64,000 nucleotides of DNA. Origin: Escherichia coli. Lineage in GTDB: Bacteria > Pseudomonadota > Gammaproteobacteria > Enterobacterales > Enterobacteriaceae. Position numbers and translations under genes: made by a program. This document shows, in pieces, positions 26,822-27,516 of the stretch. The notes below the pieces were generated by a model that made no database searches, was not told the DNA's origin, and saw only the letters and a list, made by a program, of their open reading frames with translations. The DNA is taken from NCBI RefSeq assembly GCF_003334305.1, contig NZ_QOWS01000001.1. One strand, written 5' to 3'. The stretch's first letter is position 1; each line of letters opens with the position of its first letter.

Positions 26822-27516
26822 GTATGTCGTACCTGTTTTTGGAATTCTTTCCGCAATAGTTTCATGCAGACTACCTGTAGTACGGGAAGCTGCTTAGAAC
26901 ACTATATATAGGGGGTATGTTTGGGATTCACTGCAAGATAGTGTGAAAATGGCCCTCTTGCAAGTGCATAACTTTGTGGATAACTCAGGAAGGAAAAAGT
27001 GGCTTTCGCGCACCTTAGGTCAGACAAGGTGTCCGGGAAAGTCAATGGGAAGAGAAAAATTTGTTAAAAATAACTGTTCGGCGATTTCTTGAACGGCAGA
27101 ATAGGTTGGATAAATTGATATAGATGGTTTATTAATCTTTTTGCTAATGATTGCAAAAATTGATCTAAGCACGAGTCATCACATAATCTGATGTATCAGT
27201 TGTGGTCAATATATAAGCGAATGTAAGCGATTGTTGATGTCGAAATGGTTGTTTTCTATTCGGTTATTGTTAAATGCGAAGCCATTTTGTTAATTTACCT
27301 TATATTATAAGAAAATTATTCATTACTTTAATTTAGTTTAAATATAACTGGTATCCCTTAAGGTTATTAACTTGAATTATGACGCACTGATATTATTCAT
27401 CAAATAATAACAAAATAGCCATTGCATCGGGTTGGACAATTTACAAAAGAAAGATAACCCATATTGTATAATGCGTTTAAATATGCCGTCTTATATAAAA
27501 TGATGGTCAGATTAAT
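26822..27516. promoter_or_regulatory. nrdA / yfaL divergent regulatory region; DnaA box tgtggataa (26976..26984), NrdR-box-like palindrome acactatatatag (26899..26911)
   Basis: 695-bp AT-rich non-coding region; 9-mer complementary to the TTATCCACA DnaA box; palindromic element resembling an NrdR box; long nrdA leader expected from established knowledge. Confidence 0.55.

Follow-up and report, generated by a model that had tools for sequence, protein, structure and literature searches.

The nrdA–yfaL locus

The spacer studied here occupies positions 26822-27516 (695 bp) of the window, by which we mean the whole 64-kb stretch of DNA that was analysed, and lies between the divergent genes nrdA (minus strand) and yfaL (plus strand). 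The orientation of the window is opposite to that of the K-12 chromosome. In the RefSeq annotation the locus comprises nrdA, ypaB and the 'AIDA-I family autotransporter adhesin YfaL/EhaC'. A preliminary description of this DNA had reported a 695-bp spacer parting divergent nrdA and yfaL, and both the coordinates and the RefSeq gene names agree with it. The annotated genes are the following:

24536-26821, minus strand: nrdA, followed by nrdB and then yfaE
26949-27092, plus strand: ypaB, an ORF of 47 aa in the RefSeq annotation, overlapping the nrdA promoter and the sites upstream of it
27517-31251, plus strand: yfaL, followed by ubiG and then gyrA

The spacer is matched in all complete E. coli genomes (5,426/5,426), and in 5,424 of them over at least 80% of its length. 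Identity is 97.3% with K-12 and 100% with several sequenced strains. The differences from K-12 are scattered SNPs only, mostly on the yfaL side; in the K-12 nrdAB region, all three NrdR boxes (0, 1 and 2), both core-promoter hexamers (-10 and -35), the two DnaA boxes, the HusR motifs and the upstream block have the same sequence as in the window. Concerning other kinds of elements, an Rfam scan of 26000-28500 (E<=1) found no known RNA family, its single match being a chance snoRNA match inside yfaL, and a terminator scan returned zero terminators. The repeat search found merely the short imperfect direct and inverted repeats that are usual for AT-rich DNA, and a reported '45-bp inverted repeat' was not located.

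The two sides of the spacer differ in their conservation. In the alignment of yfaL-bearing genomes, all Escherichia are at least 92% identical to the window from nrdA to about position 27095, whereas beyond that position identity is 30-60% in the species-representative E. coli genome, E. albertii and a Pseudocitrobacter MAG. The last 400 bp nevertheless keep a GC content of 28-32% in these three. The same division is found within E. coli: over 26822-27095 no chromosome is less than 95% identical to the window, and 4,353 genomes reach at least 99%, while over 27096-27516 identity is below 95% in 1,057 of the 5,426 genomes. Because of this contrast at about 27095, we divide the spacer into a conserved nrdA module of about 275 bp and a variable, compositionally constrained yfaL module of about 420 bp.

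The nrdAB promoter and the NrdR boxes

The elements nearest to nrdA are its leader, its core promoter and three boxes for NrdR:

26822-26930, minus strand: 5' untranslated leader of nrdA, about 107-110 nt, placed from the -10 hexamer at 26935-26940
26831-26836, minus strand: Shine-Dalgarno-like ACAGGT in the nrdA leader, kept in the cross-species alignment
26868-26883, minus strand: NrdR box 2 (GTACTACAGGTAGTCT, with a non-canonical central AG), 15 bp downstream of box 1, placed from the probe layout
26899-26914, minus strand: NrdR box 1 (CCCCTATATATAGTGT), which contains the palindrome of the preliminary description and matches the published probes
26931-26946, minus strand: NrdR 'box 0', once assumed to be the partner of box 1, overlapping the -10 hexamer, placed from the probe layout
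26935-26963, minus strand: nrdAB core promoter, with -10 TATCTT at 26935-26940, a 17-bp spacer and -35 TTGCAA at 26958-26963, read from the sequence

The position of the -10 hexamer predicts a transcription start of nrdA at about 26927-26931. The length of the leader is, as we take it, the 107-110 nt or so of Tuggle and Fuchs. The core promoter scores 8/12 in the consensus scanner, which is under the threshold, so that it was missed by the scan. In the cross-species alignment its -10 and -35 hexamers are identical in Yersinia, Serratia and Dickeya, and a CRISPRi study locates the nrdA promoter within ypaB.

Concerning the NrdR boxes, an NrdR-box-like palindrome (acactatatatag, 26900-26912) had already been picked out in the preliminary description, and it is borne out, since it lies inside box 1, which is unique in the window and covered by the published probes. 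The 16-mer of box 1 is the sole match in the 64-kb window to the palindromic NrdR consensus at three or fewer mismatches, where 0.08 matches are expected. Box coordinates were derived by laying the probes of PMC12176259 on the window, to which they are identical throughout: the box 0+1 probe at 58/58 positions (26894-26951) and the box 1+2 probe at 57/57 (26863-26919). With the box 1+2 probe, NrdR has a KD of about 100 nM in the presence of ATP+dATP or ADP+dATP (Rozman Grinberg et al. 2025, PMC12176259), whereas the KD with the box 0+1 probe is above 6000 nM, that is, binding is weak or non-functional (PMC12176259). Based on these published KDs, box 1 is the key NrdR box and its partner is box 2 in the leader, not the box over the -10 hexamer.

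Boxes 1 and 2 are both 16 bp long and partially palindromic and are separated by a 15-bp linker, in agreement with the 15-16 bp of an NrdR operator. They stand 47-93 bp 5' of the nrdA ATG, between it and the -10 hexamer, a location proper to the operator of a ribonucleotide reductase operon. A motif like box 1 is present 72-123 bp 5' of the nrdA ATG in 78 of the 79 loci scanned, which makes box 1 the one element kept in nearly all Enterobacterales loci; the sequence of box 2 is not kept outside Escherichia in the cross-species alignment. The functional partner of the palindrome had escaped the preliminary description: it is the downstream box 2 and not the box that overlaps the -10 hexamer.

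DnaA boxes and the upstream elements

Upstream of the core promoter, the conserved module contains two DnaA boxes, two HusR motifs and a further block:

26963-26971, minus strand: second DnaA box TTATGCACT, abutting the -35 hexamer with one base shared, 3 bp from DnaA box 1
26975-26983, minus strand: DnaA box 1 TTATCCACA (tgtggataa on the other strand), a consensus match
26986-27001, no strand assigned: HusR (YnfL) motif CAGGAAGGAAAAAGTG, an exact match to the listed motif
27021-27036, no strand assigned: HusR (YnfL) motif CAGACAAGGTGTCCGG, an exact match to the listed motif
27041-27095, minus strand: upstream activating block, comprising ATTGAC (27041-27046), an A/T run and CGTTCAAGAAATCGC (27081-27095), kept across Enterobacterales

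The DnaA 9-mer tgtggataa, noted near nrdA in the preliminary description, is indeed present, at 26975-26983, where TTATCCACA matches the 9-mer TTATNCACA; it belongs to a tandem pair and is found throughout the order. The bare motif is not above chance, with 8 matches to TTWTNCACA in the window against 5.4 expected. We give weight to the box because it has a tandem second box, because the site is just upstream of the -35 hexamer and because it is conserved order-wide. The pair thus stands directly beside the promoter elements. Of 78 Enterobacterales species, about 76 have a perfect TTATCCACA near nrdA, at an offset from NrdR box 1 that is fixed in one of two arrangements; two loci show no consensus box in the stretch that was scanned. 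DnaA footprints are known at the nrdA promoter. DnaA control of nrdAB has been described as both activation and repression (PMC2500167).

In the upstream block, CGTTCAAGAAATCGC at 27081-27095 is likely to be a Fis site centred at about -156. Presumably it coincides with the Fis site centred at -156 of Augustin et al. 1994. Both HusR motifs have been assigned to the gSELEX peak at ypaB/nrdA, whose position is 2,342,734 (PMC12844172).

Distribution across Enterobacterales

We compared the loci of different species, 80 in all, with the N-terminus of NrdA as the anchor. In most of them ubiG is located directly 5' of nrdA, in the same orientation and about 360 bp away. In five of the 80, yfaL is present between ubiG and nrdA; it reads away from nrdA, from which it is separated by about 600-790 bp. 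These are the loci of E. coli, E. albertii, the Pseudocitrobacter MAG, Enterobacteriaceae bacterium RIT691 and Rahnella bonaserana only. Since ubiG precedes nrdA in most loci, we regard yfaL as an insertion between the two.

The nrdA loci of Salmonella, Citrobacter, Klebsiella, Enterobacter and Pantoea share with E. coli NrdR box 1, the ACAGGT leader, the AAGAAATC and ATTGAC blocks and a perfect TTATCCACA. In contrast to E. coli, these loci carry their DnaA boxes in the leader, on the downstream side of NrdR box 1 and inverted relative to each other (TTATCCACA...TGTGGATAA), and have a different core promoter; their upstream neighbour is ubiG and not yfaL, and they are without the AT-rich module. 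Looking at all species examined, TTATCCACA is located 70-80 bp upstream of NrdR box 1, beside the -35 hexamer, in Escherichia, Yersiniaceae, Pectobacteriaceae, Hafnia and Limnobaculum. In the other Enterobacteriaceae and the Erwiniaceae examined it directly adjoins box 1 on the downstream side, with the inverted partner 30 bp further, in the leader. Because of this split into two arrangements across species, the placement of the DnaA boxes in E. coli is atypical for its family. It is conceivable that the textbook promoter of E. coli nrdA, whose DnaA boxes precede the -35 hexamer, does not show the ancestral arrangement of Enterobacteriaceae and is a replacement specific to Escherichia, possibly acquired with the yfaL insertion or at the same time; this is a doubtful proposal to which we give a rather low probability. 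A co-transfer of yfaL and promoter from a Rahnella-like donor was considered separately and found no support: identity of the Rahnella bonaserana locus is low outside the core promoter, and the yfaL-bearing locus of RIT691 carries the other promoter type.

Part of the E. coli module is also found outside the chromosome. P1, P7 and P1-like phage-plasmids contain about 115-130 bp of it (approximately 26944-27076) at 78-95% identity. Among the P1-like phage-plasmids of E. coli, about 235 have such a copy. The -35 hexamer, the pair of DnaA boxes and the HusR motifs are all part of it; the NrdR boxes and the nrdA leader are not, and the Fis block and AT-rich module are missing from it as well. The phage copy sits upstream of hot and antisense to upfN/upfM, and the P1 stretch is flagged in GenBank (M95666, NC_005856) as 'nrdA-like promoter', 'dnaA box' and 'two predicted DnaA boxes'. 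An origin of the phage copy from a donor outside Escherichia was rejected, as the copy is closest to the Escherichia (E. coli) versions. P1-family phage-plasmids, on which this copy of about 130 bp circulates, could have brought the module in, or exchange of it between them and the chromosome could be continuing.

The AT-rich module beside yfaL

Beyond the nrdA module, the following features are found:

27096-27516, plus strand: yfaL-linked AT-rich module, about 420 bp and about 29% GC, delimited by composition, promoter density and the drop in identity
27107-27116, plus strand: TGGATAAATT, a 9/10 match to the high-affinity H-NS motif TCGATAAATT, from the motif scan
27160-27187, plus strand: candidate distal yfaL promoter TTGATC-16-CATAAT, from the scan; the same sequence is in Shimada et al. 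2014
27440-27472, plus strand: candidate proximal yfaL promoter, with TTTACA at 27440-27445 and TATTGT or the extended -10 TGTATAAT at 27465-27472, proposed from the scan

The preliminary description had called the 400 bp or so nearest to yfaL very AT-rich, with many A/T tracts. The first part is confirmed: the GC content of 27046-27516 is 0.291, against 0.517 for the window, and this is the lowest 471-bp stretch of the window (0.03% of stretches are as low). As for the tracts, they are present, but in no greater number than composition predicts, with 10 homopolymer tracts of at least four bases against 9.5 +/- 2.7 in composition-matched shuffles. AA/TT periodicity of 10-11 bp was sought in the AT-rich region and none was found, so that the sequence gives no evidence for intrinsic curvature; phased A-tracts, a trait of H-NS-silenced promoters, are thus lacking here, although they are not obligatory for H-NS binding. 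Matches to the H-NS 10-mer number 10 in the window against 4.4 expected, which makes TGGATAAATT a weak pointer.

Three traits of a promoter island are found here: the region is AT-rich (GC 0.291 vs 0.517 for the window), it adjoins a gene whose presence at 5 of 80 loci is that of a horizontally acquired one, and promoter-like sites are dense. Nine such sites were counted, against 3.6 +/- 1.8 in dinucleotide shuffles (about 2.5-fold), with a scanner that is cruder than PlatProm. TTGATC-16-CATAAT is given as a promoter of the RpoD holoenzyme toward yfaL (Shimada et al. 2014, PMC3946193). The candidate proximal promoter is located about 45-75 bp 5' of the yfaL ATG; TTTACAA and an ATAAT-like hexamer are the sole pieces that align between the deeply divergent haplotypes on the yfaL side.

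H-NS and the proposed silencing of yfaL

The promoter island 'yfaL(-)/ypaB(-) 2342143_534' maps to about 27032-27565 of the window, where the mapping uses an nrdA coordinate of U00096.2 that we take to be correct; a cross-check with the HusR peak at 2,342,734 is consistent with it. The island is one of 78 (Panyukov & Ozoline 2013, PMC3661553), and it is coded 'A', i.e. bound by H-NS according to all of the ChIP-chip studies considered (Grainger, Kahramanoglou, Oshima; PMC3661553). It is the same interval as ours, with dense promoter-like sites and AT-rich DNA beside a gene called foreign, and bound by H-NS; nothing substantive differs between the published description (PMC3661553) and the present one. 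The yfaL<>nrdA spacer is also marked with an H-NS site by genomic SELEX (PMC3946193), and H-NS bound in a divergent spacer has been argued to affect both promoters (Shimada et al., PMC3946193). H-NS-type occupancy of the AT-rich part, as proposed in the preliminary description together with a check in binding data, is in agreement with these three K-12 ChIP-chip data sets and with genomic SELEX; the check has therefore largely been published already, the interval being listed as H-NS-bound in K-12. All of this binding evidence comes from K-12, which is 97.3% identical to the window strain over the 695 bp.

Concerning the expression of yfaL, our literature search found no direct report of yfaL derepression in an hns mutant. 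YfaL has been studied by inserting a constitutive lambda promoter ahead of yfaL in order to see a phenotype, and the gene is termed 'cryptic' because the phenotype was seen after this insertion. The practice fits a low native expression of yfaL, though it is no proof that H-NS is the cause. In one paper yfaL is listed among the genes regulated by GadE/GadX, and regulators other than H-NS may matter for it.

Two other readings of the AT-rich DNA were weighed. According to the first, its 420 bp serve mainly the control of nrdAB, as an element of cell-cycle timing, melting or architecture, and H-NS is incidental or aimed at nrdAB. Sun et al. 1994 do report that an 'upstream AT-rich sequence' is required for the cell-cycle control of nrd, papers citing Cendra et al. 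2013 name H-NS as a repressor of nrdAB, and the argument of Shimada et al. (PMC3946193) on both promoters of a divergent spacer points the same way. The distribution of the DNA argues otherwise: beyond about 27095 conservation is lost already among Escherichia, the many species with ubiG next to nrdA (at a distance of about 360 bp) have no such stretch, and the variable part follows the allele of yfaL and not nrdA, unlike the nrdA elements closer in, which are conserved order-wide. Moreover, the element of Sun et al. could be the short A/T run at 27055-27073, inside the conserved module. We consider this reading improbable; in view of the report of Sun et al. 1994, a part of the AT-rich DNA may still belong functionally to nrdA and not to yfaL.

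According to the second, the AT-rich DNA has no regulatory role and is a leftover of the horizontally acquired yfaL, to which H-NS binds as it does to any AT-rich DNA. Between haplotypes the sequence is poorly kept while the composition is kept at 28-32% GC, and the tract count is that expected from composition, with no phasing, all of which this reading would accommodate. On the other hand, haplotypes that now share 30-60% identity have kept a low GC content, which suggests that the composition itself is maintained; promoter-like sites are enriched over dinucleotide shuffles, the RNA polymerase holoenzyme binds the spacer in vitro (PMC3946193), and H-NS on a segment that bears promoters amounts in practice to silencing. 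We find it equally improbable that this DNA is without a role.

The ypaB reading frame

The ypaB ORF was examined as a possible reason for the conservation of the nrdA module. In the allele of about 90% identity (B2-type), found in about 1,000 genomes, its start codon is CTG, and RefSeq annotates no ypaB there; in E. albertii the ORF is shortened to 17 aa. Most differences between versions change an amino acid, and the versions also end differently at the C-terminus, so neither frame nor start is conserved among close relatives; one SNP between the window and K-12 alters the second codon. ypaB as a genuine gene was rejected on these grounds (the CTG start, the 17-aa ORF of E. albertii and the amino-acid-changing differences), and it is probably a chance ORF over regulatory DNA. 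That 26949-27092 is conserved on account of a 47-aa protein (YpaB) or a small RNA, and not for the nrdA sites, is hardly credible: RefSeq does carry ypaB, the ORF is open in the P1 and P7 copies (UpfO, Upf91.6) and a 'ypaB' RT-qPCR signal is reported to be HusR-dependent (PMC12844172), but in addition to the changes just listed the Rfam matches are zero, the CRISPRi phenotype at ypaB is ascribed to the nrdA promoter, and the -35 hexamer, DnaA boxes, HusR sites and upstream block fully account for the interval.

Discussion

The spacer very probably combines two control modules that stand back to back, namely the conserved promoter region of nrdAB and AT-rich, yfaL-linked DNA that is coated by H-NS. 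In the mechanism that we propose for the first module, RNA polymerase would use TTGCAA-17-TATCTT at nrdAB, which would be repressed when deoxynucleotides are abundant. DnaA on the tandem boxes abutting the -35 hexamer would tie the expression of nrdAB to the replication-initiation cycle, and Fis, IciA/ArgP and HusR would act on nrdAB from upstream of the DnaA boxes. The second module (about 27096 to 27516) would have arrived with yfaL. On its 29%-GC DNA H-NS would nucleate and then spread, and the spread would occlude or trap RNA polymerase at the yfaL promoters, with low transcription of yfaL in the laboratory; the same coat would also partly dampen nrdAB. The yfaL promoter in use would be either the distal (27160-27187) or the proximal (27440-27472) candidate, and H-NS would be the cause of the silence of yfaL.

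As a whole, the locus is an nrdAB control region followed by an H-NS-bound promoter island before yfaL; it is already documented and ordinary. Its main features are in the literature, and there is nothing new for the specialist beyond two modest comparative points. The sharp end of the functional control region of nrdA, about 275 bp 5' of the ATG, is of modest use. The placement of the DnaA boxes matters when DnaA control of nrdAB is generalised from E. coli to Salmonella or Klebsiella. The locus exemplifies a foreign adhesin gene probably quieted by H-NS beside a housekeeping promoter, and the region determines how much of the essential aerobic ribonucleotide reductase is made and links the supply of dNTPs to the initiation of replication.

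Divergence of the yfaL-side module

Comparison of the nrdA–yfaL spacers of the species-representative E. coli (L008), a second Escherichia (L009) and a Pseudocitrobacter metagenome-assembled genome (MAG; L017) places an abrupt drop in identity at about window position 27095. Among Escherichia lineages the nrdA side keeps at least 92% identity, whereas the yfaL side falls to 30–60%; a GC content of 28–32% is nevertheless kept in all yfaL-side haplotypes. The divergent haplotypes are accompanied by a yfaL allele with a protein identity of only about 73%.

Unrelated genera carry yfaL in one and the same slot, flanked by ubiG and nrdA and divergent from the latter: the Pseudocitrobacter MAG, Enterobacteriaceae bacterium RIT691 (L042) and Rahnella bonaserana (L079). 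Set against the other loci, the near relatives of these three are without yfaL in that slot. This distribution suggests that insertion or exchange has occurred repeatedly in the slot.

In strain EC2001 (match H90; NZ_CP133811.1, ~1591742–1591979) the match to the yfaL-side module is split over two separate places, and a 'hypothetical protein' is annotated beneath it; this suggests that an insertion interrupts the AT-rich region in that strain. Elsewhere in the window, 51121–51591 is the stretch with the second-lowest GC content (0.314), and is possibly another H-NS-type intergenic region.

Phage and plasmid matches

Phages P1 and P7 and ~235 P1-like phage-plasmids carry ~115–130 bp of the nrdA promoter module at 78–95% identity. 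The matching stretches are as follows.

Location of the nrdA-like stretch in the window and in mobile elements
window 26944–27076: stretch of the nrdA module borne by phages (sequence match)
L004 1501–1615: nrdA-like stretch in phage P1
L007 1201–1329: nrdA-like stretch in phage P7
L002 4001–4139: nrdA-like stretch in plasmid pPBS4-p1

The phage and plasmid copies contain the -35 hexamer, both DnaA boxes and the HusR motifs, lack the -10 hexamer, the NrdR boxes and the Fis block, and are directly followed downstream by hot. GenBank records already label the phage stretch an 'nrdA-like promoter' and note its DnaA boxes.

In the plasmid collection, NZ_OL790696.1 (match H46) is a 4.8-Mb record containing the entire region at 100% identity, evidently a chromosome misfiled as a plasmid; the six full-length 'plasmid' matches of this type are to be disregarded.

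The nrdA leader and the DnaA boxes

In a ~90%-identity allele, carried for example by strain G749 (~1,000 genomes fall in this band), 13 bp of the nrdA leader are missing (GGAATTCTTTCCG, window 26841–26853), a deletion placed just before the Shine-Dalgarno-like ACAGGT. The ubiG–gyrA spacer contains a consensus DnaA box, TTATTCACA (window 32154–32162); taken by itself, this box is not above chance.

DnaA and NrdR boxes were compared across nrdA loci of different species (L008–L087), in the interval ~40–240 bp before the nrdA ATG (position 3001 in most loci). A perfect DnaA box takes one of two mutually exclusive placements relative to NrdR box 1. For Escherichia, Yersiniaceae, Pectobacteriaceae, Hafnia and Limnobaculum, the DnaA box stands 70–80 bp upstream of box 1. 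Erwiniaceae and all remaining Enterobacteriaceae have it adjoining box 1 on the downstream side, with an inverted partner 30 bp beyond. The arrangement in E. coli is atypical within its family.
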